A stretch of 64,000 nt of DNA from Raillietiella orientalis (lineage: Eukaryota): positions 2,108,001-2,172,000 of the forward strand of contig JAYWIR010000032.1 in NCBI GenBank assembly GCA_036172245.1, in the 5' to 3' direction. A program made the translations under genes and the position numbers. Positions within the stretch are counted from its first letter, which is position 1, and every line of letters starts with the position of its first letter. Below are positions 1 through 60,520 of the stretch, one piece after another. Under the pieces are notes generated by a model. It saw nothing but the letters and a program-made list of their open reading frames with translations. It was not told the DNA's origin and ran no database searches.

Positions 1-1399
1 CCTAGCATGTCCCTAGCACTAAAATCATGAAGTACGAGACACATGAGCTGGATTATATGTTCAAGAGAATTTACTGGTTATCGAAACACAAATAACATAC
101 TGCATGCTTATTATAGGGATGCACAATCGTAATTTTCAGAAACCCCATCAAAATTATTTGAATGAGAAATCTTTGCAAGTTTCGCCTGTGCAGTAGTCCT
201 GAAAAAAAAAACAAACAAACACTCGTATGGAGCATTTTTTTTTCATGTGTCATTCTTTTTTTCAACCCGTCTACTTTGAGTTTTTAAATTCAACGGAACG
301 TCAATACTGCCGTTAAAAACTATATGAAAAGATTATCAGTTTTGACTAAAAGATAGTTCTAAAAATAGTACGTATTGATGTCTTTTTTTCTTCTTGATTC
401 TTCAGTTAGGTATGATTTTTAATTTATATGGTTTTCCGATCTGTTTTCCCTACAACAGTTTCCAAAACAGCAGATAGGATTTCTGCCCTCCCACATTTCA
501 ACCTGTATTCTTTGCATAAAACACTTTCAACGTAGTCATCATGATTTTCATTTCAGTCTCATCTAGCAAAGTAAACTTCCTCAGTCCCTATTGAAAAAGG
601 GGTTTATTTGTATTTTTTAAGTTGCGCAGCAAGAACAGCGTACATCTATCTCTCATTTTTCAGGCTGTACACTCCTAGGACTTATTTGGATTAATCTTCG
701 CCTCCCAGCAACATTTTCTTCATCCTATTTATAAGCATCATAATTCCATGCATTCATGTGTAAATCAAGGGTAACATTCAAAATCAGATCAAGTAATTTG
801 ACTCGAACCCAGAGAATTCCACAGAAAGACGAATAAACTAAATAAACAGCCCGGAGAAAATTTGAGAAATACTTGCTCAAATCAATGATTGGTGACCTGA
901 GGATTCTTAAGATCGCAATTTCCAAAGTTCAGTCCCTTTGAATTGCCTTTTATGATATCTTACAAAGAAGGACTGGAGAAATTTACTCCTCCAATCGTTG
1001 GTTGCGGTGTACTTTTATCAATAATGTAGGAAACGTGTGACCCAGACAGCAGAGCAACAAGGTTCCAGCAAATAAGTTGGCAACACCCGATGATGATTCA
1101 GGACTGAAAATAATGACTATAAGGGGATGCTCGTCTTGGACTATACGGTTATGTTTGGTACGTCTCTGTAGTCGGATACCTTATTCTCCTCCCCCTCCCC
1201 CTTTTCCTTTCCCTTTTTTTCATTTTCTTTTTAATGGCATCTAGACTTTTCCATGCTTTTTTCTTTTTCCAGAGAGGAAGCGTAGGGACGGAGGTAAAGA
1301 GCTTTTAAGCAATGTCTTTTATATGCTTTTTCGTTAAAGAAATTAGAACGAAAACTTTCATTTAAAAAAAGTTGCAATTTGGAAATCCTTCAGAAGAAC

Positions 1400-2560
1400 C
1401 TGATTATTCCAGTGTTTTTGAATTCCGAGGGAAGATTCGTGGTATGAACGGTGGACGATTCACTTTATGATTCTGGAACGAAAGAAACACTGCTAAAGTC
1501 AAGGTGTCGCCGAAGTGCCGACACAGTTCACGTCCACGAAAGCACAGTGAGAATTCGCCTTGTGGCTTCGAGTCCGAGAGGTATATTTATTTGGGGGAAA
1601 TTCTCCAACGATTCACGGCAAAGTTTCTGACTTCTGATGCTTTGGAAAGTTTCCGGTCACTCTTGTGAATACGGAATTCACAGAAACCAGAATGGCAGAC
1701 GCAGCCCGGGTTGCAGATTAACAGCAAGCATGTCAGATTAACATAAACCATCTTCAGAATGGAAAGACGCTGCTTTCCATCTGAAGAAGGCCTCAGCTTC
1801 ACTTTTTGTTTCGGACTCGGCTCCCCCGTCATCTGTCGCGACCAGCCGACTGTAGATCTCAAAGGTTTCTGGCGTATCTCTGGAAGCGTCTTTGCCACGA
1901 TTTGTGCCACACTCGCGGACCTCTTCGTGGACTTATCTCTGCCAGCAATGCAAAGAACGCCGCAGGAGTGTGGATGGACGCATTGGAAACACAAAGCCGG
2001 ACTTCCCTCGGGAGAAGCACCGTGGGTTTCCCAGTCCGTAGTCTGATGCGAGGAAAGGCAGCGTGTTCTGGGGCGCTGCGCCCAGCAAAGTTCGGGAAAA
2101 AGAGATCATTCCTTCCCAGTGAAGATGAAATGGCGGTAATACGGGGGAAAAACCAACTTGGTGGTTGGTATGTTGAAATACACAGGGAACAACGCAATCG
2201 TTCCAATGTTTGCAAAGACTATCAGCAGCCGAGAGTGAAAGTCCCGTAAATTGTATGAAGAAATCCACGTCATCTTGAACACAGGATAATGCCGTAGAAT
2301 CTGCAATAACCGCCACAGATTCAGGTTGCAAAAATCCATTCAACCTAAACAAAAGCGTATTCTCGAAAGGAAGGTGATGAGGGAGGAGAGCCTTGTCGGG
2401 GATCACTCCAGGAGGGATGACTCGAAACGCTGGAAAGAGCCGGTCGGATTCGAAACATTAGCGATTCCTGCAGGGAAGGACGCGGCCAAAGGTGACACCT
2501 CAACGAGGAAAGCAGCACTTCGAAACGGAGCAACATAAACCTGACCTGGACACACGTCTA
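1400..2560 (+). mobile_element. Possible highly decayed transposable-element remnant
   Basis: Local GC/CpG enrichment, broken frames and weak endonuclease-like fragments (EGRFVV, IFIWGKF, FTF); not diagnostic. Confidence 0.25.
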
Positions 2561-5500
2561 TTGGAATTTGTCTATTTGAGTGCTTTGCATTTAGAGTAAT
2601 TCTATTGGCAATGTTCCCCGGCTCATACGATCGGGCCATTTATTTATCGTTAATCGTGTTAGTTTTCCATAGAAAGCTTCACTGTTACACCTTGCAGATA
2701 AAGACCGGAAAAAAGGCTTTTCTTACTTAGGCGAGCCACTTCAAACTTTTACCTAGGGCCTGTTTCTCAATCCCTGTTTTATTAATCTCATTCATCTACA
2801 GTGATCCCGGATTATCCATTTGTTGATGGATTCCCCATTCATTTTTCAATCTGAAAAATCCGTTTTTTCAAAAACTCATAACATTTTCCCAAGTTTTTCC
2901 CAAAGTTTTAAGGTGGTAATTATGTTGGCTGCTTCATCAGGATCTTTGATGTAGTATGATGTTGTTAACTGCGTCAAACTTTAAATTGTCACTTAAAAAT
3001 TATAATTAATTAGTTTAAAATTCTTTTTACGAAACACTTGTATTGATGGACTGACAGGACGGAGATTCCAAACAAATAATACATGCTTTATATATGAACT
3101 GCAAAAGTTTTGTGAAATTTAAAATCTGTCTAAAGTCTGTAAGATAAAGCTTTTTTTTCTTCCCCCTCCCTCCCACCAAACACGAACTTATCCTTTTTTC
3201 CAGAGACTAGGTTGAAGCCTGAATTAATGTGCAAAGCTCCAGGTACAAAAGTCAACTATGAAAACAGTAATTTATTTTAAAGTGGTATACAATTAGACAG
3301 AACAATACACTCTTATGGGAACAAGCCAAACAAGTATGCTTTGTTCACAGAACAACTGCCATTACTGACGTGCCATTCAAACCATTAAACTACATGAAAT
3401 ATTTTGATGAGAAAAAATCTCCATCTCCCACCCACCCAAATTGATCCAGTTATTTAATACGAACTTTTAATTTGGCTCTGCTTACTGTAAAATACCTTCA
3501 TTTTTGCCAAAACAATCAAGATCAAATAGTTCTCTAAGATACCCAAGAGTGGGTACTAAGAACCATTCTTCTTAAACATACAGAATAACTGGACTCGCTG
3601 TGTCTCAAACATCAGCATCCACAAGACAGTTTTAAAGTTTCAGGAACAGGGAATGCATGCTGCTGGTTTAAATTTCTCTGAAAATATGAGACTTTCATAA
3701 AAACCTAGCAAAGTGACAACCATAACCTTGCACCAATTTTTTTGAGAGAAAGGTAAAGGACAAGAAGCAAACCAGCAATTGTGAGTCAGGTACCAATGAG
3801 GGACTGTGGAACTTAATAAGGGTGTACAAGATACACAGAACCAAAACCAAGTCAAAGGCATAGTTTCGGATTTTTTTAAGGAGAGAGTATCGTCAATTTT
3901 TGTTGAGAAATTAAAACTGTAATTTGATACTCATCATTGAAACTACGCCAAGTCAGGCTACTCTTGAAACATGAGGAGTGAAAAAAAACCACTTTTGCAC
4001 ACTTTATCCATTTCATGACAGTAAACTTCAATACACTGCAAATATTTCTAATGCAATTTTTAGGCTCCTTCTCAAGTGATCTGCTTGTCTTTCCCAAAAA
4101 GAGATGCTGAAGAAAAACGAAAAGTCAGTACATGGACCTGAACAATGTTTGCATCTATCACAACCTATAGATCTTGCCTATCATGCACATTTCTGAATTG
4201 CTGTTCACCAGGATGGGGAACAGGCACTGCTACTTGCTGGGAGAAACCAAACTCCCATTCACTTTGTGAAATGCATCAAATCTCAATCACACCTTTTGAG
4301 TTTGAACTTCTACTCATGCTGAATATGTCTAGGTTGTTCCATGCACAGACACTACTTACATAAAGAATCTGGAATAATTTCCATTAGAAACAACGGCTAA
4401 TGAGTTCCTAGAAACTTTTTCCTTACAAAGAAACCCAGGGAATGAATAACAATGGAAATGAAAACCAAGCAAGTGCAACCCTATCAGAACGAAAATTAAT
4501 TTACATGGAGAACAAAGAGGAGAAAAGTTATCAACCAACAGACCATCACCTGAATCTAACTTGCACAACTCTTTCCATCCAGCTAAAATACTTTCCAAAA
4601 TATGCCTCGAGAGTGGCCATCTTCAAGAAAACATTCTTGATTGGTGTTACCATTTACTTAATTTAGTTTACATTCATCTGCAAGAATTGCTTTTATCAAC
4701 AAAGAGCTTTTATACTCGTGAACGTCTCCATGCTTCTTCTCAAACGACTCATATTTAATGCGCTTACCTTTATCCTGCATGGCTTATGTTGTAATCCTAA
4801 AATATTTACTTTGCAATAAATTTCAATTATGAAACCTAATCAAATGAAACTACTGAACTAAAAATGTACAAATGCCAAACTTGTCCACTCTATCAAACTT
4901 TATAATAGTTTATATTTGTTTCTAGATGGGTTCAATGAACACTTTTGTTTACTTAGAAAACAATTAATTTTAGGTCTGATGGAAACTTACTTTGAGGAAA
5001 AGAAATGTTTCTCATTTGCATCTCGAGGTCTCATTCTTTTCAACTGTTCTCCTTTTTGCTGTTTCTAAATTCCTTTCTCCTTTGATTCTTTATCTTTCTT
5101 AGAATTCAATTCATTTGCCTAACACCTAAATCTCTGCACCTTAAGGAGTACTAAATGATGTTATGTAACTCTACTGCTGAATTATACTCTTGATGTTCTA
5201 AATCATGTTTTAAACGTTAGTAATAGTTTCTTATTTCTGTCATCAGCAGCATTTGATGTCATCAAAGTTAAGTTAGTAAGTTAGAAAATAGATGCTATCC
5301 AGAATAAATGTGCACATACCCTCAATGATAAATTTTACAGGCTAGCGTTCTAAACAATGCAAAGGCATACTGGAAAACACTTGTACATAAAACGTGTTAT
5401 TGTTACATTCCCGATGTTTTGTTACCTTTCTTTGATAGTGAAAACGGAATATAACTTTTTTACGCTTCACAGAAACAAAAGTGATCTAGGAAAGTAAGTG

Positions 5501-12076: not shown

Positions 12077-13997
12077 AATTCAAGGCTCTGAAAGAAAATT
12101 GGAACCAATAAAATTTTCAATCACTACATGTCAATGTTATTAATACTATACAATTAAATATGTACTCATTCCGTCAGTCTATATTAAAACTGACTACTGT
12201 AGCTTGCTGCAATTTCTAAACTGCAATGATTTGCAACTACAAACCCATAAAACTGATTCAAGATGACATTTGTTTTGAATAAAAATAATGTATTTGTAGT
12301 TCTGCCACATAATTAAACATAAAGTATCATTTACGTTAATTTAAATGATTACAAGTGTTCATATCAAGTTGTATGCTTGCACATCATTATTGAAGGAGTT
12401 ACGTGATAATCACACATGAAACATCCTGATGAAGTATGACGCCTACATATCGTATAAAAAATTAAATGTTCGCTGCAGTGGGCAAATTTAATTCATTAAT
12501 ACAATGGATTTCTTTAAATACATAAACAGCAGGTCGCAGTGATTATTGAAACGCTCACACTCTTGAGATACTTGTGATTTATTTATGCAATATGAGAACA
12601 GAATAAGGCAAAGTGATAATTTTCATCAGTGCATCTACTTCATAAATCTAATTCTCAGTTTGTTTACGATTCAAAGGAGGTAAATTTCTCTGGATCTACT
12701 TATCAAACTTCAAATGAAGGTGCAAATACGTATAGGAAATAAAGGTTTCTCAGTTTTATTCATACGACTACACGAAGGATGAAACTTTTCCTGGAATTGC
12801 CTGAAATCGGGAAAGAATCTTGATGCTCTTGTACATTTTGACTTTTGTGCGCGCCTGACTCTACAGATTCGATTGCATGAAAGAATTCCAAACATCCGAA
12901 GGTTACGAACAGCCACAACATAGAATGAAAACCATACAAAACCTGGGCCTCGTAATCTGTTTTTTTTTTTGCCCTCCCCCTAAACGGAAGCTTGGGTTTT
13001 TTCCATGAACACCATTACGTACTCTCCAGCATTTCACGTAAACGACACACACTTGGATTTCTCTCTTTCCTATGCACAACCACCAATTTCCGTACTCCAG
13101 CTTCAATCGGAAATGTGTACCGAATGGTTGGACATCGAAACGCAGAAAAACACTTTACAAATTTGTGGGCTGCAGCTGGGGCGGAGCAGCAACGACGGAC
13201 CCGGCTGATTTTAAGGGGCATGGGGCCACCACACTTCGCTGGCTTCGAGCCTGACGGCCCCACGGAGCTTCCTGTCGTTCGAATTGCTGCCCGCCGCTCG
13301 CCCGATCGAACACCACGACAAGTACACCCTCTCTCCGTAAACACCTCGGCGTCTGATTCCCAATTACCGTTTCCTTCTTTCCTTCCTTCCTATCGTTTCA
13401 TGGGCCACAGGGACGTCTTCCACACGAAATTCGTGTGTACTGTGACAGACCAACGCACGCATGCAGCCAAGAAAAGCAGGAGGGAGAGAGAGGGGGGGAA
13501 AAAAAAAGGAGCTTTCCCTTCGTACTTACAATTATGCAAAAAAGCGGCCATACAAGAGGTTCACAACACTGGAGGAATAAAATTGTACATGTGTACAGAT
13601 CGAAAATGCTTCCGCTGGGTAACAATGAGTAGGGAACACATCAGTGATCTCTGATTGGTCAACAATCGAGCCTTTGGCGAACGGAGGGAGAGGTGGAGGG
13701 CTTTGTGCTCCCATGGCATCCGACCTTTGGGATTCGTTTGGGGTTGACGAAAAGCACCGAAAAGGGGAAGAACTCTTCAAGGGACGCTGGATACCTCGGC
13801 TGATAATTTAAGGAAGAGGATTCTTCCTCGCGTTTCCCTTTGGATTTTCTCCCTCATCACCCCCAGTAGCCGAGTATCGGGTTGGCTTCGAGCACATGAT
13901 GGGGGTGTTTCTCTATTGCTCCCAACAAATAATCCAACGACTGCCTATCAATCTGTTAGATTACCAACTCTTGCCTTATTCGCAAATGGGATTCGCA

Positions 13998-14030
13998 GTC
14001 TCCTCTCCCTCTCTCTCTCCCTCTCTCTCT
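13998..14030. repeat. Imperfect (CT)n microsatellite
   Basis: tctcctctccctctctctctccctctctctctt read directly. Confidence 0.7.
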
Positions 14031-49361: not shown

Positions 49362-50204
49362 CTTTTGCATTGACTATCAAATCCTATTACTGACCGTGGA
49401 GGGCCATGCAGTAACTCCGTTTGTCCTTTCGAAAATTGCCAAATACGAATCTTGCCGAAACCTGTGCTCCTTTCGAACAATCGGGGAAGATGGGATTCAC
49501 GATCTGATCTCGAGATGCGTCGCACACGCACACACGGCAACAGGACGGGAGGAGCACAGCCGTGTTGGATGCTCAGCTGTCCGTTCCTGCGCTGTAAACA
49601 TTCCGTTTCGCACAGCTCTTCCACCCGTAGGCAAAAATAAGGTGCCAAGTGATGCAGATAAATACGGCGCCGGTGCACACACAAAGCTCTTTTACTCGCT
49701 ATAAAAACAAAACAGACATCTATGAACTTGGAACTTCCAAGAAGGCCCAAACACGTGCACAACGACACTGTATGAACGCCAGTGGCAAGGTGGCTTTTTT
49801 TTTTCTTCTTCTAAGAGTTCCATCTATTTGAACTGCTCAGCAATTAGGAAGCATTCAGAAGCATCACAAAGTGTAAGAAAGATACGGACGCAATTTTTTC
49901 CTAGAGATTCGTAGAGATTTTGCAAAATGAACCACTTGCTCCAGGATGCGACTGTTACACACAAACACACAATTTGAATGAATTTCGTAAAGTAGTTTTA
50001 AGGTGAAGTACAACGTGAGATACTACCTAAAATGCGTGCTCATTTAAAAGTAGGAAAAGTATGACATTTTCATCGTCTCAAGTAAGAGTTCAGTGGTTGC
50101 CTCGTTTTCACCAAAGCCGGGTTAGTAATTCTGTTTTCAATTTCTTTTCTGATTAGTAACACGCTTTCCTATACAATTTCAGCCTCACAAGATTTCAATT
50201 ACGT

Positions 50205-50970
50205 CTGTAGCGCCAAGATCACCACCAACTTGCAATTTGGATCACGAGCCGGCTGAAAAATGCTGCGACCTCAAGTGTTCCACCGAATGGACTATTGGCC
50301 GGGGAGAGCTGCTGGGAATCCTTCTTTAAGACCTCGAGTGGCCCTCAATGCTGAAGAATAACCAGACGTCCCCTGAAGTGGCAAGAGTAGGCATTTCTGG
50401 TGTTGCACTGGGGTCTCCCCAACAACGCCCGCCGATCTCACTGGACTCGGGGGATCTGTGGACCCAAACTGCTCCATATGCGGGGAACGGGAATCACTCC
50501 CGCACCTCTTAGTTGACTGTGTTGCCCTCCGGCCCCTTTGGGAACGTTTCGGTACGACCCTAGGGATCGTGGAAGGTAGCCCTCCTAGAGACGTTTTTCG
50601 GCTTTTCTTCGTGCGGGACGCCCTGCAGCCAGTCGCTGTCGTAGCAGCGTTCAGCTGCATCCGCGGTATCATGGCAGCTTGGAGTGAATCCGACGAAGCA
50701 GAAGATGTCGGCATCCTGCAAAGGATGGAAACTCCACGCAGCGGACAGTGATCCCTTCCCGGTCCTCCAAAGAACTATGGTTTTTTGTGTTTTCAGTTTC
50801 CTGTATTTTTTGTTTTTGTTTTCCCCATCCCCCTCCGCTGACGTGGAGTGTCAAGTCGGTCTGTGCACCGACAAGCCGGCAGCTCCCTATGTTTTATTGG
50901 CCGCAGAGGGGCCTTGTACCACAAATACCGAAAGTTTTTTAATAAACGCCCCGGCTTGACCGGGTGAAAA
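50205..50970 (+). mobile_element. Fragment A: 5'-truncated LINE 3' end (ORF2 C-terminal Cys/His domain plus 3' UTR)
   Basis: DPNCSICGERESLPHLLVDC motif; homologous to 55420-56334; ends AATAAA-cgccccggcttgaccgggtg at 50941-50966. Confidence 0.88.
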
Positions 50971-53292
50971 TGTCGAAACAAACATTTCGCACCGCCCCCG
51001 CCACCCTGCCCCGGACAAGGAATGCTACTCCGCGGGTATTCTGGGAGCCTGACCTCCAATGGAGTGTCCCTCCTGCGCGAACTGCCAGATCGACCGCTTG
51101 CTGTTCGGAGAGTGCGTGAATCTCCTGCAGCAGGGTCAGATCGAAGTCGCGCAAGACGTTAGCTACCAATCGCCTCTTCTCGTTGTCCTGCAGCCCGTTG
51201 ACGTTCCAACAGGCCACTCGGACGCGACGAGAAGATGCGAGTCCGCGCATTGCTGCTATGGACATGGAGGTGCGTTCCTCGCCCCGTCCGGCGAGTCATC
51301 AGCCGGGAGCACGGCGGATGTGGGAGCGGAAGGGCTCCCTGTCTCGGCCGCGCCGCTCGCGGCTGGCTCGGTGGAGTCGAGGACCATTGCCTCGGGCTCC
51401 GAGGAGCATCGGGAACCGTTCCCGGCATCAGGCTCTTGCCTGGCAAGTTTCGGCTTGCGCGCAGCCCTGACCTTGACCGGGGCTTGGGGAGCCTTAGCGC
51501 TGCCCTCGGACTCCACCTCGGAGTCCGAATTCCGCGCGCGCGGCGGGCGTTTCGCCTGCCTCTTCTTCTGCTGGCAGCTCGGAGCTGACCCAGCATTCTT
51601 GGAGAGCGCCTTCGGCGCCGTTCCCCCTTTCGGAGTCGCGGCGTCGGCAGCTGCCCTCTCGCCGCAGGTGTTTGCGACGGCGCGCGCGGCGGCAGCGGAG
51701 GCTTTTTCTTGCGCCTTCCTTGGCGCGCGGGGCTGCCTCTTAACCCCGCCTACCTTAATAATTGGAAAGTGCGAAGGATCGCGCGGTTAGCGCTCCTTCT
51801 TCCTTCCCCCAACGGAGGTCCAGCCAACCTCGTCGCCCTCGGGTTTGCCTCGGTTCGGCGCGAGGGCTTCCAGGGTCCTTCGCATCCTCTCCAAGGCCTC
51901 CGATGCGGCGATGGCGGTCTGTGCGTCCGTCGCCACGTCTGCCTTTTGCACCTCCTTACCGGAAGGTGCGGACAGAGTGACAGGATTCTTGGAGGTCGCA
52001 CGAGGCTTTTCAGCCTTTGCCGCTGATCGACTCGCCGTGGCCGGCTTGCCTTTCGCGGGCAAAGGGGCGCGCGACCCCTTTTTCGTTGCTCCGGTGGACT
52101 TCTCGGGCGTGCCACCGCTATTTCTCTCTGGAGCGAGAGCGGACGGAAGCGGCGCTTTTGCAGTCTGCCCGATGTTTTTTTCAGACTGCTTCGCTTGGGG
52201 CTTGTTTGTAGCAGCTTGGAGAAGCTTTTTGTCCTTTCGCGCGGGCTTTTGGGGAGCATTGCTCCGAGAATCGCCCGCGCAAGCGGACTTTTCACTTCTC
52301 CGCTGAGAATGCTCGTTCGCGCCTGATTTCTTCCCCGACGACGGGGCGGATGGAGTCGGCGCGGACGGCGATGTTGCGGGGAGGTTTCTCGCCCTCCTCT
52401 TTCGTTTCAGCTCGGCGCACTCGTTAATCGAGTGGCCGAGCAGTTTGCAGTATCGGCAACTGCGTGTTGGGCACTTCCGCGGACGGTGGCCCTCCTTCCC
52501 GCAGTTGTTGCAAGCAGGGGTTTGCCCGGCAAACCGGAGATAGACGACGACGTCACCGAGGAGGATCTGCGAAGGCATGAGCCTCCGGTCGTCCATGGTG
52601 ACGCGCGCCGTCGCGAGTCCGCAAGAGAGGCGCGCGACTTTATGGATCGGATTCGCACGCCCATACATCGCGTGCACTGTGGCGAACGCCTCGAGTGCAA
52701 CAATGATGTCGCGGTCCGTTATTCTCGGCCGAATGCCCGAGAGCTGGACCACGAACGATTGGTCCAGGGCCGAGGGGACGACCTCCTTACCCCTGATTTT
52801 CAGGGGGGTTCGCAGTAGGCGCTGGACGAGGGCTGCATTTTTGCAGTGCACCTCCCAATGACCTACCGCGCTCACCGGCATTAATGCCAGGAGATCGTCC
52901 TCTCGGACCTCGACGCGTTCCAGTTCGCTCCAGAGCTGGTCTCCCGTCCCATCCCGGTAGGCGGCACTGACCTTGCAGGCCAGAGGGGGATTGTAGCCGT
53001 TTGCGGCGTACGCCCGTAGCTCTGCCTCGTCCGGTGGGGCTCCGTGAGCCGCCGCTGCCTTAGCAACGGCGGCAAAACTTCTCGCTGGAGGCGAGGGACG
53101 ATCGGTGGAGGCTTTCACTCCTTCCGAAGAAGGTCCTGCAGCGCAGGGGGGTTCCTCCACCTCCATGCAAGCAGTTGTTGGCTTTATTTTCATTCGAAAA
53201 TTGCACACCACACCCAAAAGGAACAGCCGCAAAAAACACCAAAGACGGAGCGCAAGAATGCACGTCCGAACAATAAGGAGGGCGGCTATTTG
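50967..53292 (-). mobile_element. Fragment B: LINE 5' UTR, complete ORF1 and start of ORF2 endonuclease, truncated at the junction with A
   Basis: ORF1 with two CCHC knuckles; ORF2 from ATG 51265 has WNVNGL, LLQEIH, RGVAFL and breaks after NVCFD. Confidence 0.9.
51256..53232 (-). pseudogene. Tx1-like ORF1 (gag-like nucleic-acid-binding protein with 2 CCHC zinc knuckles and a long basic low-complexity tail), interrupted by one in-frame TAA at 51787-51789
   Basis: CNNCGKEGHRPRKC and CRYCKLLGHSINEC. The frame stays open after the TAA down to 51256, overlapping the ORF2 ATG at 51265. Confidence 0.85.
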
Positions 53293-53737
53293 TCACCCGG
53301 GTGCGCCAAAGCGTTTATTAAAAACTATCCGGGAACAGAGTTCCCGGACAAAGGAAACACAAGAGACGAAGGGGATGGGATCCCCGACACGCAGGTCGGT
53401 AAACGGAAAGTCCGGAACGGGAGGGAGGGGACCACAAATACACTACTATAAAAAATAAAAATATGGAGGGCAGAGGACAGGGGTCTTTGCTTCCGCCGTT
53501 CCTTCCTTTCAGAACCGGCGATGGATGCCGGCGAACTCTCTCCTCACGCTCTCTGGTAGGTGGGCCGACGACATGCTTGCGCTGGCTAATCCTCAGGGCT
53601 GACGAAGGATGGCCAGCTTCTTCAACTCTCGGTGGGCCTTGTCGATGGCGCGGGTGCAACACACGGTTGCAACGACAGCACCCAAAGACAGGCCACCTGG
53701 CGTGAAGAAGCGGCGCATCAAGTCTCTCGCGGTGTCC
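53291..53737 (-). mobile_element. Fragment B': divergent LINE 3' end lying head-to-tail immediately upstream of B
   Basis: Minus-strand translation ARDLMRRFFTPGGLSLGAVVATVCCTRAI aligns to PRDVFRLFFVRDALQPVAVVAAFSCIRGI of fragment A; ends AATAAA-cgctttggcgcacccgggtg (53319-53294). Confidence 0.82.
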
Positions 53738-56337
53738 CCCTGGTGCAGGAGAGCTGAGGTCAGCCTCAGGGAGTAGGTTGTATTGGCGATGCGGGTACAT
53801 CAACACCTGCGGTGTCGCGTTCTTCCTAAAGCCAGCCGTCCACGCCTCCGTGAGGAACGTACGCTTCGATGACAACGGTCGTGTTGGACAGATGATTCTA
53901 TGCTGGTCCGACACGATCGATCTCATCGTTACCAAAGTGTAAGCTCCGAGCGGTAGCAAAGGGTACGCGGAAAGAACTCAGTTCTTCCAGTACCTGAAGC
54001 GCGACTGGCTGACAGATGCAGGATTGCGCAAGGCCCACCTGATAGCCGGGGACTTTAACCTCCGCCTGCTCTCAGGTGCGTGCTGCACGCAAAAGAACGT
54101 GTCGATCGAGTTGTGCTCCGCCATGCGCGCGCGCAACTTGATGGAGGGACACTCGGAAATGGAGGACAGCATCGACCACGTTTTCCTCGACCACGACCTG
54201 TGTACTCGATTCGGTAAACGAGGAAGGCTCCCGTTGACGCTGTCCGACCATTTCCGTCTGATGTTCGATGTCTGGCCACGCGATAAGGGACCCCCATCTA
54301 GGGCGTGGCGCCTACCGGGGGATTGGACGAGGCTCTTAGGTGCGGCGGATCATCTCCGCCAATTCCTCAGAGGCGTCACCCTCCGGAATCTCGAGGATTG
54401 GGACGTTTTCAAGCGTTCGGTCCGCGAGTTCTATGAGGAGTTTCCCCTGGGGCGCCTTCCCTCTGTCGGCATAGGCTGCTACGGTGCAGCCCCCGTAGCA
54501 GCCTATGCCGACGATCTTCTGCTCTTGTTGCCGATGTCCACCCCGGCAGCGGCAGTCGGAGATTTCTTCGACCTGCTTCGCTGCGGGACCGGACTGCAGG
54601 TGAACAGGGCGAAGTCGTCGGTGGTGCCAGTTGGTGCGGCGTGGGCAGGGCAGCAGGACTGGGTTTGTTTAGGGATCCCCACAGCGAGGTGCCTCAAGTA
54701 CCTTGGTGTGCCGTTGGGGGATTATTACCCTGAGGAATCGCGGTCCAGCTGCCTCCAAAAGGTTGAGACGGCGATCGGCCCGTTCCTGGAAGGCAAGTTT
54801 CACTTGCCGGAACGGGCCGCGGTTTGGAACGCCTTCGCGGCCCCCATCCTCCGCCCCTTGCTTTTCGTTTGCCCCGCCCCCGTTGAAGTGAAGAAGAGGA
54901 CGAAGCACCTCCTCCGTATCGCCCTTTGGAGCAAGGGGAGGCCCCGAGTCCCTTTGAAGGACTTGTGCGCTCCGCGTCGGGACGGTGGTCTTGGCCTCCT
55001 GACGCTGGAGCGCTTGGAAATTCAGCTGCGATGGCGCACCCTTGCCATCGCAGCAAAGATGTGGAGCACCCCTTGGTGCGTTCCGGCTCGCCTCCTTGCC
55101 AGTCGTGTGTCCCGATGCGAAGGACTCGCGTCTTTTCTTCTGTGCTCCGGTCGGAAGATCCGAAGATGCGGCCTACTGCTCGGGTGCATGGCAACCCTGG
55201 CGAAGGAGAACAGCTGGATGGTTTATAGCCCCGCCAACTCCTCCGCCTGGCTGAAGGAGACTGCTGACACCTGGGCTAAGCTAAACCAGAGGAGTGAAGA
55301 CCCCATGAATTGCCTGCGTGCCGGCCCATACACTGCCGCACCATGAGGGAAATACTTGAATTTCCCGCGGGTTGCACGTGGGCAGAGACGACCCCCCTTG
55401 CTACGCCGATGCCCTACCTCCGGAGGGCGCTTGTCGGCAGCCAGAAGCCGAGGTGGCAAGTCTCCTGCCGAATCGCAGGCAGGGAGAAGATGTTAAGCGG
55501 CTGGACCATAGGAGAACTGGCGGACGTCACGACCCCGAGCGTCCAGCCGAGAGCACTTTTGCGATGGGGCGAGCTGCTCGCAATCCCCATGGATGTGCTG
55601 AAGTAGCCCCCGGTGTTGTTTGAATCAAGGATCCTGCCCCTTAAGTGGCAAGAATCGGCGCTGCTACTGTTGCATGGGGGTTTACCCTGCAACGCACGCC
55701 GCTTCCACTGGACAAGGGGAGCGGTGGATCCTCACTGTGCCAGGTGCGGAGAGCGGGAATCGCTCTCCCACCTACTTGTTGACTGTGCTGCCCTCCGTCC
55801 CCTCTGGGAACGGTTCGGCACGACCCTCGGTCTCCCTGTGGGCAGCCAACCCAGCGACGTTCTCCGTCTTCTCTTCGTTCGGGACGCCCTTCAGCCAGCT
55901 GCAGCCGTGGCAGCACTCTGCTGTATTGGAGGCATCGTGGCGGCCTGGAGCGATACCAGCGAGGAGGGAGTGGATTCAAACGCGATGGCTGTCATCCCAT
56001 ATGCTGTTCGCTTCCTGCGGAGAGCTATTGGATGGCCCCAGATGAGAAGATTGAAGATGGACCTCGAGGGTATCCTGATAAGGATGGACCCTCCTCAAAG
56101 TGGACCGTGATTGCTTCCCTTCCCTCCAAAAACTCTTTTTTTTTTTTTCTTTGTTTTCTGGTTTATTTTTCTTTTTTTTTTTTAACCCCCCATCCCCTTC
56201 CACTGCCGAGGAGAGTCACATCGGGCTGCGTCCCGGCAGGTCCGGCATTACGTGGCCGTTAGTGGGGCCTTGTACCACATACTGTAATGACGAGTGAAAC
56301 GTTTTTTTAATAAACGTCCCGGAGTACCCGGGTGGCA
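53738..56337 (+). mobile_element. Fragment C: LINE ORF2 (APE endonuclease fused to RT C-terminal half and Cys/His domain) plus 3' UTR; internally deleted and disrupted
   Basis: LVQE, GDFN, IDH and SDH endonuclease motifs; AYADD, GLQVNRAKS, KYLGVP and GGLGL RT motifs; CARCGERESLSHLLVDC; ends AATAAA-cgtcccggagtacccgggtg (56309-56334). Confidence 0.92.
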
Positions 56338-57720
56338 TCGCCGTAACCTGGAGGGAGACGGTTCAGGGGAAACTGGTCGCAGAACTCGCGGACTGAGCTC
56401 TTCAAGTCGTCCCAGTCCGCGAGCGACTGCAGATGGAAGCCTTGCAGGAACGAGCGAAGATGTTGCGCTGCTCCTGCGAGGCGCACCCAGTCCCCTGGCA
56501 AACGCCACGCTGTGGAGGGTGGACCTCTACCGCGCGGGTGTATTTCTACCACGAGCCGGGGATGGTCGGAAAGTTCGGATGGCACTGCCCCTCGATTTCC
56601 CACCCGCGAACACAGGTGGTTGTCGAGGAACATGTGGTCGATCCTCGTCTCCGTCCCGGCGTCACCGGCCAACAAGTTGCGCGCGTGCATGGCAGCGCAC
56701 ATCTCGTTGACCAGCTGTGCGCGAATGTCGGGCGCACCTGCCAGCAGGCGGACGTTAAAGTCCCCGGCAATGAGGTGCGCCTTTCGCATGTCTGCTTCGG
56801 CCAGCCAATCTCGCCGCAGGCCTTCGAAGAACGCAGTGCGTTCCCCGCGCCTGTGGCTCGTGCCGGGCGCGTACACGTTGGTCACGACGAGGTCGATCGC
56901 GTCGGACCACTTGGCAACAAGCTGCCCGATTTGACCTTCCCCGTCGAAGTGCACGTCGCGCAGCGCATTAACGACGGCTGGCTTCAGCATGAAAGCCACA
57001 CCGCGATTGCGGTCTCTCCCGTTTTGGTATACGAGCCGCCCGCCTGCGATTCGTTCGATTTCCTGGGCCTCCTCTGCGTGGAGCACGTGCGTCTCCTGCA
57101 GAAGCGCCAGGTCGAAGTCCCGCAGGCTGGCGGCCACTTCTCTCCTCTTGCCGTCGTCGCGCAACCCGTTGACGTTCCAACAGATTACGCGCAGTCGCCG
57201 GCAGGAGGAGAGTCCACGCGTTGGTGTGTTTATTGTGCTTGCTTACCGTCCTCCGCCTGCTGTTCAGCAGGCGGGAGTTGTGTATCCATTGCGACGGGCT
57301 GTTGCTCGCAAGGAGGCGGTCCGTCGGTGGTTGTGGTGGTGGTTGGAGGATCCTGCTTGGCCAGGGACGTCTCCGGCGAGGAGTCGCGAGACCTCGCGGA
57401 CATCGCCTCCCCGTCGTCGTGGTCCGACCGCATTTCCTCCTCCGCCGGTGGAGGTGCGGAGCGCCGCGGGTTGCCTACCTTGCGGCCCGCTTTGCGCTTC
57501 GGGAGAGCGACAGCCGGAGCGTTGCCGGCTTCGGCTTCGGACTCGGAAGTCTCCGGTCCTTTCGCCTCAGCCGGACGCCTCAAGGCCTTCTTCTGGGCCT
57601 TGGGAGGCTGCTGGAGCATGGCTGCCAACTCTTCCGCCGCCTTGTTGAAGTCCCGGTCGTCGCTGCTCAAGCTGGGCTCGCGACTTTGTCGCGGCGTCGG
57701 CGTTCGCGCGGCGGCAGGTT
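56338..57720 (-). mobile_element. Fragment D: LINE ORF1 C-terminus plus intact-looking APE endonuclease domain of ORF2
   Basis: WNVNGL, LLQETH, RGVAF, NVYAP, AGDFN, RIDH and SDH in one open frame; ORF1 tail ends at 57230. Confidence 0.9.
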
Positions 57721-58372
57721 GACACCCGGATATGCCGGGGCATTTATTTATGGAAATAAAAATATAAGGAATTGTCGCGTGGCCACTCCAAAACAGCTTG
57801 CAGGTTGCCGGCGCTATGCCGGTGAGGTCCTTCCGATGCGCGGGGGTTGGGAAAGAAAAACAAAAACAAAAAGTTCGAACGTGGGAGGGAACAAGTGTTT
57901 CAGGGGTGGGAGGGCGGAGAAGGGATCACTTTGCGCGTGGAGAGGTCCTCTAGATCCTTTTGAGGATCCTCACAAGCTGCGTCCTATCCGCGCCCAAATG
58001 GCGCCACTTGCACACGCTTCGCACGAAAATGCGAGTCCAATACAAGGCGTTGCCGGTTGGCTGACGCCTTCTTCTGGTGGCGTTCCAAGCCGCCACGATC
58101 CCACGAATGCAGCAGAGGACTGCCACACAAGCGGACGGGGACAAGGCGTCACGAGAGAAGAGGCGCCTGAAAACGTCCTTAGGGCCGCATCCACGCAAGT
58201 CCAAAATCGCCGCAAGACGGTCCCAGAGAGGGCGGAGGGCACTGCACTCAATCAGAAGGTGGGGGAATGTCTCTTTTTCCCCGCGCCTGGGGAGAGAACC
58301 TCGCCGGTCTAAGGACCGGGTATCGATTATATTGCAGCGTGGGAGAACCCAGTGTTCCCCCACAGAAAACAT
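57721..58372 (-). mobile_element. Fragment E: LINE 3' end (Cys/His domain plus 3' UTR), head-to-tail upstream of D
   Basis: GEKETFPHLLIEC...LCCIRGIVAAW; ends AATAAA-tgccccggcatatccgggtg (57748-57723). Confidence 0.88.
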
Positions 58373-58379
58373 TTCTTAA

Positions 58380-59575
58380 AGACTTTATTATCTAATTTTT
58401 GTAACAAATTAGAATAATAAATGCCCCGGCATATCCGGGTGGCAAACGGCGGAAGCAATTGTTGTGCGCTCCGGGGATAGGGAGTTTTTCTTTTCTGGTG
58501 TTTCGTGTGTGGTTCGCGGCCGTTTACGGGCAGAAATGCCTGTGAACGCCGCAGTTTCAGGTGAGGGAGGCGGGAAGACCGCGTCTCCCAAGCCAAAGGA
58601 GGTATGATCACGCCCCACCACTACTTCTGCACCTTCCCCCGCCACTACGGCGAGGGCCTGGAGCGCGGTGGCAGCGGCGGAAACGCCCGATGTTGCCGCC
58701 GAAATCCAATCCTACATCCAGGAGGGCTACAATCCGGCCCTCCTGTACAAGGTAGGAAATTTATATTCCCCGTTAAGGGCGCGAAAGTTCGGCAATGCCA
58801 TTAAAAAGATGGGCATTGCCGACCATGAAATTCTTTGCCTGTCAATACGAGCGGAGGGCAGTTGGCGGAGCTCATCTGCAAGGATGCAGCTCTTACCCAC
58901 AAAATGCTTTGTACGCCCGTACAATTTGAGGGCAGGAATTTACTCCCCCACACGGTGGACCACTCCATTGTGGTTCACCTTACTGGGACAACAGTGCGGA
59001 TGGATGAAAATGCCATCCGCACTTAGCTTCAAAAATTCGCAAGCGTTTCCGCGATGTGGCGAAAGCCCAACGCCTTCGCTGTAATTTCCATCCGGGTAAT
59101 CCCGGGGCGTTTATTAAAAAACATTCCACAAACATGGTACCAGGCCCCACTAACGGCCACACAACGCCGGACCTGCCGGGACGCAGCCCGGCGTGGCTCT
59201 CCTCGGCAGTGGAAGGGATGGGGGAGAAAACAAAAAGAAAAATAAAAAGGAAAACAAAAAGTAGTTGGAGGGCTGGGAAGGGATCACTGTGCACTGGGAG
59301 GAGGGCCCATCCTTCGAAGGAAGCCCTTTAAGTCCGTTTACATCTTCGTCGCGGGTATCACTCCACGCCGCCACGATGGCACGGATGCAGCCTTCGGTGT
59401 AAATAAGGCGTTTAGTGGGCGAGTAGGCGCTCGCCTGACGCTGCGAGAAAGCGTGCAGCTTCCCCACAAGCTCCAAATCGGCGACGAGTTCGTCGACATT
59501 TGGTTCGTGGGGAAGCCCAAATTTTGTGGGAACTGTAAGACGTTCGGGCACCTGAAAAAGCGGTGCCCGGACGCA
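58380..59575 (+). mobile_element. Fragment G: short 3' tip (AATAAA plus hairpin), then 5' UTR and frameshifted ORF1 up to the first CCHC knuckle; interrupted by fragment F
   Basis: EIQSYIQEGYNPALLYKV matches ELRAYAANGYNPPLACKV of B. After F the frame resumes VNKAFSGRVGARLTL...FCGNCKTFGHLKKRCPD. Confidence 0.87.
59085..59389 (-). mobile_element. Fragment F: ~300-bp 5'-truncated LINE 3' end inserted into ORF1 of G with a 13-bp target-site duplication
   Basis: Flanks gccttcgctgtaa (59072-59084) and gccttcggtgtaa (59390-59402); 3' UTR closely similar to fragment C. Confidence 0.88.
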
Positions 59576-59610
59576 GTTTGCCTTTTACTTAATCAAGCAC
59601 CCCTTGCTAC

Positions 59611-60520
59611 TTAAACGCGATTCTCTGAAATCCTTAGAATGTATCTGAAGCCGATGAAGACATTCATTGCATTCATTTGCATCGCCTTTTTGATAATAAT
59701 GATCAACTGCTCAAGTGCAAAAAACATCTCTGAAACATAAGTTTGTACACCATAGTGCAGCACATGAAATGTAGCAAATGCCAAATGATCCTCTGCATCT
59801 TTTGGAGTAGCAGGTCTTTGATTTATAATACGATACAAGTTACCAGGTAGAATTCCTCCTGACTGAATAGCATTCCTTAACTGATCTAACATGCCGCCTG
59901 ATCTTTCAAGTTCAGCAACACGTACATATGATGAAAGTTCTTTTACAATATCTACATTTTTCACTAAATCATCCATAAAGGTAGCTAAGCTTGATGTTCT
60001 CTTCTACTTGCAACTTATTGATACTGTCAAGAACACGTTCAAAACCTTGATGCATTTCAATCCTCGTTCCTTTTATAACTGATAAAATCTTACCATTTTC
60101 AAAAATTGCACTTATTACCACAAAGTTTGTATCCACTTTATTTCTGACCTCTTCAATGGCAGCATAGTTTTTTTGGTATAGAGAAAAGGTTTTGACAACT
60201 TAAAGGTCAACTTTCTCAAAGGTTTTATATTGTTCATGCGGAAGTATGCCAAATTCTTCTGGTGTATCTTCAACTCCAAGACCATGCCTTCATTGTCTAT
60301 AACTCTGTCTTTGTTTTCCGCTTCCTTCAAGTAAGCTTCAGACCATCAACTTCGTGGATAACGTTCATACCTCTGAGCAACTTCATTTACCGTGTTTGTC
60401 TCTAATACATCCATGCCTCCCCTAGAATCGATCTGCTTTGTATTAGATTGTAAAGGTTGGATATCAAAATCTTTTGTAGCCATATCCTTAATTTGACCTA
60501 CACCCACTTTATCCGGGCTT
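59611..60520 (-). pseudogene. Disrupted intronless coding remnant of unknown origin
   Basis: Protein-like segments (SPDKVGVGQIKDM..., LKEAENKDRVIDNEGMVLEL..., MDDLVKNVDIVKELSSYVRVAELERSGGMLDQLRNAIQ...) linked by stops and frameshifts; no family recognised. Confidence 0.4.

Follow-up and report, generated by a model that had tools for sequence, protein, structure and literature searches.

A 9.4-kb island of GC-rich LINE sequence lies at 50200–59580 within an AT-rich, animal-type region of the window (the whole 64,000-nt stretch of DNA that was analysed). Eleven segments, all from one L1-superfamily LINE group, make it up together with ~40 nt of AT-rich filler (Table 1). On balance, we read it as a real nest that arose through several retrotranspositions primed on family DNA, by nested insertions and probable template jumps, in the manner of the Zepp clusters.

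Extent and composition of the island

GC content is 58–61% over 50–58 kb versus 31–42% in the remaining window. The island as a whole (GC 0.593, CpG o/e 1.01) differs from both its left flank (0.348 and 0.57) and its right flank (0.382 and 0.69), and GC3 is 66–73% in the element frames versus 27% in one host exon. The flanking parts of the window carry host genes (an MT-A70 exon and TTC39-like, SRPRB-like and chromodomain ORFs), and no target-site duplication was found between the host flanks of the island.

A previous sequence-only reading had proposed at least eight fragments with almost no host DNA between them. Their order, A(+) B(-) B′(-) C(+) D(-) E(-) G(+)[F(-)], was recovered using Pfam, self-blastn, tblastn with 150 LINE proteins, frame translations and an nhmmer profile of the 3′ end; the count was amended, given that C is two pieces, and a 34-nt segment (H) and the filler were added. 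The near absence of host DNA also held, except for the ~40 nt of AT-rich non-family DNA between E and H (58373–58412), which cannot be assigned to the family with confidence and could be either filler or a remnant. The same reading had seen no copy in the other ~55 kb, and every search agreed: self-blastn gave no matches in the remaining 54.6 kb of the window, all matches of 150 reference LINE proteins to the window fell inside 50431–57242 (tblastn), none of the 22 tblastn matches of island proteins lay outside the island, and the 3′-end nhmmer profile, run over the window, matched six times, each time within it.

Table 1 Segments of the island, in window positions, with the matches that identify them.
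Segment	Positions	Strand	Content	Matches
A	50200..50970	+	5′-truncated; ORF2 C-terminus (zf-RVT-like CX2C...HX4C) and 3′ UTR; terminus ...AATAAACGCCCCGGCTTGACCGGGTGAAAA	PF13966, E=0.0011 (below gathering score); nhmmer 50614-50971, E=1.8e-90; C2, 75% nt identity over 318 nt (self-blastn)
B	50972..53289	-	5′ part of copy; 3′-truncated exactly at A's 3′ terminus, antisense	PF03372, E=2.1e-7; zf-CCHC, E=0.0023 (below cut-off); P0001, 81% identical over 93 aa at 51250-50972 (tblastn)
B′	53290..53740	-	5′-truncated; decayed ORF2 C-terminus and 3′ UTR; terminus ...AATAAACGCTTTGGCGCACCCGGGTGACAAA head-to-tail on B's 5′ UTR	nhmmer 53699-53289, E=5.3e-87
C1	53741..54492	+	Endonuclease (EN) from about residue 46 to ~70 aa beyond EN domain	PF03372; reference residues ~50-311 (tblastn); D, 69% nt identity over 650 nt (self-blastn)
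C2	54493..56337	+	RT 'AYADD' motif to ORF2 C-terminus (zf-RVT-like), then 3′ UTR; terminus ...AATAAACGTCCCGGAGTACCCGGGTGGCA	PF13966, E=5.7e-5 (below cut-off); nhmmer, E=1.7e-116; LINE ORF2 reference residues 717-942, weak, E 0.003-0.007 (tblastn)
D	56338..57718	-	5′-truncated in ORF1-ORF2 spacer; EN complete and open (311-aa frame)	PF03372, E=5e-15; L1 EN structures, E=4e-10; reference residues 1-~320 (tblastn)
E	57719..58372	-	5′-truncated; ORF2 C-terminus (open 141-aa frame) and 3′ UTR; terminus ...AATAAATGCCCCGGCATATCCGGGTGTCA(A)	nhmmer 58152-57718, E=9.1e-92
Filler	58373..58412		~40 nt, AT-rich, between 5′ ends of E and H	Low nhmmer posterior probability
H	58413..58446	+	34-nt 3′ terminus (TAATAAATGCCCCGGCATATCCGGGTGGCAAA), directly before G's 5′ UTR	nhmmer, E=5.3e-8
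G1	58447..59084	+	5′ UTR and N-terminal part of ORF1, decayed copy	Aligns to B's 5′ UTR/ORF1, also matched at protein level
F	59085..59389	-	305-nt 5′-truncated copy, last ~40 codons and 3′ UTR; antisense within G's ORF1	nhmmer, E=1.4e-82; C2 3′ UTR, 75% identity over 291 nt
G2	59390..59580	+	G's ORF1 resumes, including first CCHC knuckle; 3′-truncated at AT-rich host DNA (59580/59581)

Structure and divergence of the LINE group

In this family ORF1 carries CCHC knuckles, and ORF2 combines an APE endonuclease with RT and a zinc motif at the C-terminus. By structure comparison, the nearest solved structure to the family's EN is human L1 EN. Segment B contains a 5′ UTR (53289–53167), an intact ORF1 with two CCHC knuckles (Met at 53166, stop at 51787–51789), a spacer and the start of ORF2 (Met at 51265), which covers EN to about residue 98. 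The 3′ end of the family consists of AATAAA, a 5-bp GC stem-loop, GTG(N)CA and then 0–3 A; the terminal stem-loop is kept in all six copies (29 of 30 pair cells are standard pairs), with the stem of B′ preserved via three G–U pairs. Frames are open in B, D and E and broken in A, B′ and G. Zero disabling mutations were found across ~1.9 kb of coding sequence in B; A has several (three reading frames are needed and stops are present in the translations) and C2 has one frameshift and one stop. C1 is joined in frame to C2 at a boundary where ~400 aa of ORF2 are absent, and three contigs of an independent run (X1) diverge just upstream of 54493.

Between overlapping pieces, dS was 0.84–2.34 and dN/dS 0.11–0.42 in 12 of the 13 pairs with computable dS (the thirteenth, a 25-codon off-frame trial of G2, gave 0.77); five further pairs were saturated and dS could not be computed. 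Judged by this divergence (dS ≥0.84), the island holds at least five lineages, bearing out the earlier description of a nest of clearly divergent subfamilies; all fall in one L1-superfamily LINE group. The family occurs in multiple copies in run X1 (269 contigs at 85–99+% identity) and is almost absent from protein collections, where the best relative was 51% identical over 106 aa and word-based searches were empty.

Joints between copies and their possible origin

A motif search identified exactly six 3′ termini in the island and one weak look-alike outside (2637–2645, minus strand). As previously claimed, all six abut family sequence directly, by motif, alignment and tblastn. In three cases the terminus runs antisense into another copy's body (A/B, C2/D and F/G), and in three it sits head-to-tail on another copy's 5′ end (B′→B, H→G and E→D), the first two exactly at apparently full-length 5′ ends and the third on the truncated 5′ end of D. 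Only B and G keep a 5′ UTR; both start directly after another copy's terminus and open with similar bases (ACAAATAGCCG and GCAAACGGCGG). The H terminus is identical to that of E at 29 of 30 nt (blastn, 96.7% over 30 nt). In addition, 5′-truncated ends meet head-to-head at ~53740 (C1 with B′) and ~58373–58412, and three copies (B, D and G) are 3′-truncated. D stops ~70 aa past EN, exactly at the 3′ terminus of C2 and antisense to it, with a 3–4-nt overlap (GCA/TGCC) at the joint, and the ORF2 positions at which C1 and D break coincide to within about 12 nt.

The insertion of F into G is a textbook case of nesting, with a 13-bp target-site duplication on both sides (59072–59084, GCCTTCGCTGTAA, at the end of G1, and 59390–59402; 12 of 13 identical). 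A contig of run X1 joins 59020 to 59411 without F, indicating a related copy that lacks F. Near the right edge of the island, where composition changes, the ORF at 59246–59614 reads ...KFCGNCKTFGHLKKRCPDAVC. Nested insertion is complete only here: at A/B and C/D the far (3′) half of the 'target' copy is missing, so a plain nested insertion would need an added large deletion in two of the three cases. No event but F yielded a target-site duplication, and the sense-strand nick sites at the three antisense joints (TGTAA^ATAAGG, TTTCGAC^ and GGCGATGC^) share no common motif. No classical Tx1-type target (tRNA, snRNA, rRNA or microsatellite) is present, in line with the earlier observation; the window contained no tRNA, one weak SNORD36 match 45 kb away and no microsatellites apart from a 35-nt A-rich repeat inside one 3′ UTR.

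In the nest model that we favour, reverse transcription would begin at the very 3′ end of the RNA, from a 3′-OH that is itself family DNA. One type of primer would be the sense strand of a resident copy where it is nicked or broken, giving antisense tail-into-body joints (demonstrated at F in G by its target-site duplication, and probable for A on B and C2 on D). A second type may be the 3′ end of a cDNA that has just reached the 5′ end of its template or a stall point; such a template jump to another family RNA would produce the head-to-tail joints. The 5′-truncated ends would be joined to whatever sat across the break: host DNA for A, and another such end at B′|C1 and E|H, possibly through convergent reactions that resemble twin priming. 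As B is free of disabling mutations and A, which would have inserted into it later, has several, the model requires a source of A that was defective beforehand. Repeated rounds among at least five co-existing lineages would yield an island resembling the Zepp/ZeppL clusters. A preference for family DNA could arise if the CpG-/GC-rich copies were better substrates than anything else in a genome that is AT-rich and depleted of CpG, or if family RNA paired with family DNA.

For the nest model we count the six termini on family DNA, the F duplication and the X1 copy without F, the number of lineages, the lack of copies elsewhere in the window and of an alternative multicopy target, the starts of B and G after termini, the H/E identity, the conserved stem-loop, the multicopy state in X1 and precedent. 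If 6–8 insertions fell randomly on the window, the probability that each entered the growing nest would be ~1e-5 to 1e-7 (0.003 for the three antisense joints alone). Against the model stand its scope of one locus with joints that are not independent, the nick sites without a shared motif, the large deletions that A/B and C2/D would need, the single target-site duplication, the defective source that A would need, the coincident breaks of C1 and D, which it does not explain, and the head-to-tail joints, for which template jumps would require no targeting.

The idea that the family targets itself was upheld as to the nest, in which every 3′ end lies on a family member, but not as to an aim of the endonuclease, given the dissimilar nick sites. 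Likewise, not every 3′ end need be a landing on the family: F in G is one, but template jumping explains the three head-to-tail joints at least as well as independent landings. As template jumps need no targeting, the independent landings are reduced to three. Active self-targeting is plausible, although unproven at one locus.

Both template jumping and twin priming are well documented for R2 and L1 enzymes, and it is possible, if rather unlikely, that the island reflects a few complex events without targeting, that is, one to three integrations or break repairs in which RT switched repeatedly among co-expressed family RNAs and both sides of the break served as primers, much as in twin priming, so that many fragments were assembled in one go. 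Such events would suit the head-to-tail joints exactly at apparently full-length 5′ ends (two of two), both head-to-head joints, the three 3′-truncated copies (not a product of ordinary target-primed insertion) and the GCCC microhomology that flanks the C1/C2 internal deletion, as seen at the C1 end and in the X1 loose-end consensus. However, F has its own target-site duplication and is thus a separate event, pieces from at least five lineages, whose synonymous divergence is saturated, would require many different RNAs in a single particle, decay differs between the open and the broken copies, and the three antisense joints, each into another copy's sense strand, would remain unexplained. 

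We consider it improbable that copies accumulated passively at a site that tolerates or traps insertions, whether a small patch of heterochromatin or a locus like a piRNA cluster, and were purged elsewhere. The copies are fragmentary and in both orientations, and insertions could be costly in the nearby host genes, but the 9.4 kb is all one family group with no other TE type and at most ~40 nt of host DNA, the surrounding 54.6 kb has zero copies despite long non-coding stretches, and several open frames and a CpG o/e of 1.0 leave little time for purging to shape the pattern. A piRNA cluster fits poorly with so small an island of one family group; the dual-strand clusters described to date are much larger and contain a mixture of many families.

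The least probable explanation is an artefact, either mis-assembly (collapsed or chimeric repeats) or DNA of a GC-rich associated organism joined by the assembler: it would account for the extreme contrast in GC3 and CpG o/e and for the near-absence from protein collections, and run X1 gave no read-level confirmation of either host junction, but both island edges break inside elements rather than at repeat boundaries, the sequence has no gaps, X1 contains family copies together with low-depth host-flank contigs (bins 49788–50181 and 59638–60031) and a contig over 57457–57746 with 5 other letters and 3 gaps per 290 nt (extending 27 nt beyond the D/E joint, short of the 31 nt required to count as bridging), and the island has an internal logic (a target-site duplication, termini that are exact and homology that continues in frame across F).

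Comparison with known systems

Dual-strand piRNA clusters (for example, Drosophila 42AB) span tens to hundreds of kb, contain many unrelated families and are defined by small RNAs; the island shares their fragmentary TE copies in both orientations, but is 9.4 kb of one family group. Target-specific LINEs, of the Tx1 clade and others, include Tx1L in Tx1D, Keno and Utopia in U2 snRNA genes, Mutsu in 5S, Dewa in tRNA repeats and Kibi and Koshi in microsatellites. Like these, the island family is APE-type and putatively of the L1/Tx1 group, carries a zinc motif at the C-terminus, lacks a long poly(A) tail and has insertions concentrated on one kind of repeated sequence; unlike them, it shows no conserved target sequence at its nick sites, and the known targets are absent. 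Classical L1 twin priming involves one RNA and one target-site duplication. The island resembles such 5′ inversions and template-switch chimeras (for example, U6/L1) in its head-to-head joints of 5′-truncated ends, 3′-truncated inverted pieces beside flanking DNA and exact RNA-3′-end-to-5′-end chimeras, but its joined pieces differ in lineage, and no duplication was detected in the flanks.

The Drosophila telomeric elements HeT-A, TART and TAHRE form head-to-tail arrays in which the 3′ end of each new element sits on its predecessor's 5′ end, truncated to a variable extent. The joints B′→B, E→D and H→G are like these and like the bdelloid Athena/Hebe chains; however, telomeric and rotifer arrays lie at chromosome ends and are mostly in one orientation, whereas the island is host-flanked on both sides and orientations alternate. 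An A. vaga chain shows fusions of 3′-truncated copies to elements of opposite orientation, as well as internal deletions associated with microhomology (PMC2861651), and the island likewise has 3′-truncated copies that meet opposite elements and a microhomology-flanked internal deletion. Hebe is of the jockey clade with a 5–25-nt poly(A) tail, in contrast to the 0–3 A and L1-like EN of the island family.

Zepp (Chlorella and Coccomyxa) and ZeppL-1_cRei (Chlamydomonas) are two-ORF L1-clade LINEs whose new copies enter existing ones, giving clusters of mostly 3′ ends; Coccomyxa Zepp clusters are local GC peaks of 1.5–42 kb (61% GC), outside which Zepp is described as essentially absent (PMC8226300, PMC3446292, 10.1101/2022.06.16.496473). 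There is one Zepp cluster per chromosome, centromere-linked and CENH3-bound (10.1101/2025.03.28.645958). The island shares with Zepp/ZeppL its two-ORF L1-type LINEs, self-nesting, GC peak and lack of copies outside, a likeness of description. It differs in that Zepp hosts are GC-rich green algae and its clusters are centromere-linked, whereas the island lies between host genes and is flanked by animal-type genes in 35% GC DNA; the Chlamydomonas clusters are single-family, and the island has at least five deep lineages.

Anatomy and class of the LINE island

We established the segment order of the island from Pfam matches, self-blastn, tblastn with 150 LINE proteins (exhaustive search), frame translations, alignments and a 3'-region profile searched with nhmmer. 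The fragment order A(+) B(-) B'(-) C(+) D(-) E(-) G(+)[F(-)] proposed in a sequence-only reading was reproduced, and three features are added to it: the division of C into two pieces, a bare terminus (H) and a short filler. That reading had also described a nest with almost no host DNA and no copy elsewhere in the window, and both points held: the 9.4 kb consist of one family group plus approximately 40 nt, and blastn, tblastn and nhmmer gave 0 matches to the family in the other 54.6 kb of the window. An nhmmer alignment that carries H back to 58278, as if it were a longer copy, rests on a palindromic CCGG-N8-CCGG from the coding strand of E and was rejected.

Segments of the LINE island (window positions)
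Segment	Positions	Strand	Content
A	50200-50970	+	ORF2 C-terminus, 3' UTR
B	50972-53289	-	5' UTR, intact ORF1 with two CCHC knuckles, spacer, ORF2 start, endonuclease (EN) to ~residue 98
B'	53290-~53740	-	ORF2 C-terminus, 3' UTR
C1	~53741-54492	+	EN, ~residue 46 to ~70 aa beyond domain
C2	54493-56337	+	'AYADD' through to 3' end
D	56338-57718	-	spacer, complete EN, then ~70 aa
E	57719-~58372	-	ORF2 C-terminus, 3' UTR
Filler	58373-58412		~40 nt AT-rich DNA
H	58413-58446	+	bare terminus, 34 nt
G1	58447-59084	+	5' UTR, ORF1
F	59085-59389	-	last codons, 3' UTR
G2	59390-59580	+	ORF1 continues; first CCHC knuckle

The island carries marks of the L1 superfamily, namely an APE-type EN at the N terminus of ORF2, a CCHC ORF1, and 5' truncation (A, B', C1, D, E, F and H) together with a target-site duplication (F). 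The EN domain (PF03372) scored above the cut-off in B (E=2.1e-7), C1 (4.1e-6) and D (5e-15), and its best solved relatives were human L1 EN chains (E 4e-10 to 2e-8). The ORF1 of B contains two CX2CX4HX4C motifs (CNNCGKEGHRPRKC and CRYCKLLGHSINEC); PF00098 fell below its cut-off there (E=0.0023, 18.4 bits versus 20.8), and a fold of ORF1 residues 43-300 predicted without an alignment had a mean pLDDT of 36, too low for an RRM check. The reverse transcriptase (RT) survives from 'AYADD' onward in C2 only, with the upstream motifs deleted. C2 aligned weakly with LINE ORF2 residues 717-942 (tblastn, E 0.003-0.007), Pfam RVT_1 gave no match in the window at E<=0.01, and the neighbours of the C frame in the protein atlas were LINE-like RVT_1 clusters (score 0.83, under the lead level of 0.9). 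The long poly(A) tail usual in the L1 clade proper is absent from all six termini (0-3 A). A Tx1 assignment is not established; among solved structures, human L1 EN is the closest to this EN, and the RT evidence is partial.

An EN search of 1.84 billion representative proteins returned one close relative, a LINE-type protein of 106 aa (P0001; 51% identity to D and 81% to B), and every other match was at most 41% identical; in the best long relative (P0057), the EN alone aligned (36-39%). Word-based protein searches (EN and C frame against longer proteins, ORF1 against proteins of similar length) were empty, which is weak evidence. Two further scans were set aside: the terminal motif occurred at 16 metagenome loci, none of which blastn or tblastx linked to the island, so that they are chance matches, and prokaryote genome contigs scanned with the EN gave one irrelevant 29% match in a bacterial MAG.

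The island (50200-59580) has a GC fraction of 0.593 and a CpG observed/expected ratio of 1.01, versus 0.348 and 0.57 in the left flank and 0.382 and 0.69 in the right flank. Along the window, GC is 58-61% across 50-59.6 kb versus 31-42% elsewhere, and GC3 is 66-73% in the element frames versus 27% in one large host exon. This contrast points either to very young or unmethylated copies or to a GC-rich source of the group, and it raises the question of how the elements keep their composition in an AT-rich genome, or whether they arrived recently. Milder GC-rich patches at 13001-14000 (50% GC) and 1001-3000 (44% GC) have no similarity to the LINE group, and a 232-aa frame at 12956-13654 matches no Pfam family. 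Animal-type genes lie in the flanking DNA, namely an MT-A70 exon whose closest relative is human METTL3, a TTC39-like TPR gene, an SRPRB-like exon and a chromodomain exon. A minus-strand open frame of 130 aa at 59611-60003 looks like a host exon, matches no Pfam family and ends approximately 30 nt from the right edge of the island; a protein atlas search with it returned nothing useful. The island may lie within, or just past, the 3' end of a host gene (right edge, 59581-60003).

Termini and joints

A motif search located exactly six termini (exact element 3' ends) in the island and one weak look-alike outside it (2637-2645, minus strand). The six termini in the island have a common layout: AATAAA(C/T)G, a stem (CCCGG, loop, CCGGG), (G/A)TG, one or two further bases (often ending in CA) and finally 0-3 A. 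For every terminus the stem is predicted, with standard pairs in 29 of 30 pair cells and no double compensatory changes. In B' (53295-53311), the 5' arm reads TTTGG in place of CCCGG and pairing is retained through three G-U pairs, as would be expected if the stem is under selection or if one arm only has decayed from C to T. The elements end approximately 25 nt past AATAAA, a spacing that would suit cleavage and polyadenylation there, yet hardly any A tail is copied. Judged from these sequences, the reverse transcriptase probably starts where the 3' UTR ends, with the stem-loop as its guide ('stringent' 3'-end recognition).

Each of the six termini adjoins family sequence, as the earlier reading had stated, three in antisense and three in sense. 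The terminus of A meets the EN of B in antisense (the P0001 alignment to B runs to 50972); that of C2 meets D in antisense approximately 70 aa past the EN, with an overlap of 3-4 nt; and that of F lies antisense in the ORF1 of G, flanked by a 13-bp target-site duplication (59072-59084 and 59390-59402, 12/13 identical). In sense orientation, the B' terminus adjoins the 5' UTR of B, the H terminus the 5' UTR of G, and the E terminus the truncated 5' end of D in the ORF1-ORF2 spacer. A 5' UTR is kept in B and G only, and each starts right after another copy's terminus, approximately 100-160 nt before ORF1; their first bases are similar and their overall alignment is weak (45% identity). The duplication around F was the sole one found: none occurs between the two host flanks, by-eye inspection revealed none around A or C, and the six joints share no nick-site motif. 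The 8-mer GGCGTTTA occurs at 59393-59400, 3 nt downstream of the nick of F in G, and again at 59101-59108, antisense of the terminal motif of F, a recurrence that could be chance or a sign of RNA-target pairing. C1 and D, on opposite strands (65-69% nucleotide identity), break within approximately 12 nt of one ORF2 position (54480-54492 and 56335-56350), approximately 70 aa past the EN, and one piece is joined to the 5' end of C2 and the other to its 3' end. This common position could be a recurrent break, pause or priming site in the ORF2 of the family.

Random nesting of 6-8 insertions in this window has a probability of 1e-5 to 1e-7, and the three antisense landings alone one of 0.003. The sequence-only reading had seen no classical Tx1-type target, and our searches agree. 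The window contains no tRNA, no snRNA or rRNA lies in or near the island, and no microsatellite target was found, the sole tandem repeat being a 35-nt A-rich tract in the 3' UTR of F. The one Rfam match in all was a marginal SNORD36-like C/D-box snoRNA at 5149-5223 (32.2 bits versus a gathering score of 30, E=0.31).

Divergence of the copies

Every overlapping pair of copies is distant. In the EN, D and C1 have a nucleotide identity of 0.65, with dS 0.90 and dN/dS 0.42, and D and B have dS 1.59 and dN/dS 0.27. At the C terminus, dS and dN/dS are 1.15 and 0.14 (A versus C2), 1.89 and 0.16 (A versus E) and 1.17 and 0.36 (C2 versus E), and F and B' are distant as well; saturation left dS uncomputable in 5 of 18 comparisons. 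The 3' regions that overlap (A, C2, E, F and B') are so far apart that they stand for at least five lineages, whose divergence took place under purifying selection, which bears out the clearly divergent subfamilies proposed earlier. The same distances rule out that these five are decayed copies of one insertion. The H and E termini are identical at 29 of 30 nt.

One public DNA run (X1) contains 11% of the sampled words. Its contigs on the island number 269 and are spread over identity classes (135 below 90%, 96 at 90-95%, 29 at 95-99% and 9 at 99% or above), so the family is multicopy in X1, contig depth not being equivalent to copy number (285 pieces and 206 loose ends in total); a few contigs of low depth cover the host flanks. 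Among the pieces listed, one contig joins 59020 to 59411 and represents a G-like copy without F. Another (57457-57746; 290 nt with 5 differing letters and 3 gaps) extends 27 nt into the E terminus, under the 31-nt bridging rule.

Segment C has lost approximately 400 aa, comprising the linker and the RT motifs ahead of YADD; an open 467-aa frame (53943-55346) spans the C1/C2 joint, and GCCC microhomology flanks the deletion. Among the loose ends listed, three X1 contigs part from the window just ahead of 54493, at this internal deletion, and their consensus ends in ...GCCCG versus ...GCCC in C1, which is this microhomology. The deletion in C might mark a propagating derivative, not a one-off event.

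Probable formation of the nest, and known systems

Given that the termini are exact, the joints are best read as reverse transcription from the 3' end of an RNA on a DNA 3'-OH. In three cases (F, A and C2), the priming 3'-OH would lie in the sense strand of a resident copy; the duplication shows such priming for F, and we infer it for the other two. In the case of B', H and E, the 3'-OH would be the end of an antisense strand, that is, a cDNA that had reached the 5' end of its template (B and G) or had stalled (D), and the joint would be a template jump to a second RNA, which would explain the exact 5'-end joints without targeting. The 5'-truncated, head-to-head joints B'/C1 and E/filler/H may each represent two convergent reactions joined midway. 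Twin priming and template-switch chimeras are known mechanisms. As the 3' parts of B and D are missing, the model also requires two large deletions or break-primed events. It has weak points: B carries no disabling mutation, yet A, supposedly the later arrival, is decayed; the common break of C1 and D is unexplained; and the nick sites have no common motif. B has an uninterrupted ORF1 (459 aa, Met at 53166) followed by an open spacer and ORF2 start, and stops at EN residue ~98, where A cuts it off; A, however, is ridden with frameshifts and stops, so that the 'younger' insert looks older than its target. If read in this way, the locus unites target-primed reverse transcription outcomes that are rarely documented: exact 3'-to-5'-end chimeras, convergent 5'-truncated joints and 3'-truncated copies.

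The self-targeting proposed in the sequence-only reading is upheld in part: the placement of all six termini on family DNA and the nested F favour it, but no motif marks the nick sites and template jumps suffice for the sense joints. We consider it unlikely that an animal L1-like LINE clade here homes to its own copies as Zepp does, via CpG-rich DNA or a terminus with a dual use. The cue for such homing would be unmethylated CpG-rich DNA, a candidate that only the elements' own copies would offer in an AT-rich, CpG-depleted genome, or alternatively the conserved AATAAA-plus-stem-loop terminus. In a head-to-tail pair, the terminus would then act both as the putative polyadenylation signal of the upstream copy and as a TATA-like promoter of the downstream copy, the latter role being conceivable since AATAAA lies approximately 25 nt ahead of the next copy's first base; HeT-A offers an analogy in its 'promoting in tandem'. 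Should a preference for family copies prove genuine, the island would represent a self-homing LINE group from outside the green algae, and self-nesting would appear as a recurrent 'safe-haven' strategy of L1-type elements, independent of any host multicopy gene. A literature search, which was not exhaustive, found no self-nesting L1/Tx1-like LINE in an animal.

The other earlier proposal, a trap resembling a dual-strand piRNA cluster, is a poor fit: such clusters, defined by abundant small RNAs from both strands, hold many unrelated transposable element families over tens of kilobases, whereas the island has one family group plus approximately 40 nt in 9.4 kb. HeT-A/TART arrays are uniformly oriented, head-to-tail and located at a chromosome end; in contrast, orientations in the island alternate (+ - - + - - + - +) and host DNA lies on both sides. 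The head-to-tail chains described at rotifer chromosome ends include copies with 3' truncations and internal deletions (PMC2861651). Zepp-type elements insert new copies into older ones and form clusters of mostly 3' ends, 1.5-42 kb long and of 61% GC in Coccomyxa, with the elements essentially absent outside them (PMC8226300, PMC3446292, 10.1101/2022.06.16.496473); the clusters, one per chromosome, are linked to centromeres (10.1101/2025.03.28.645958). Self-nesting LINE clusters are thus already known, and what is unusual here is the host setting together with a barely sampled family. With six 3' ends in 9.4 kb, all on family DNA, a nested F and 0 copies in the rest of the window, the island appears to behave like the Zepp/ZeppL clusters, a likeness of arrangement at one locus.
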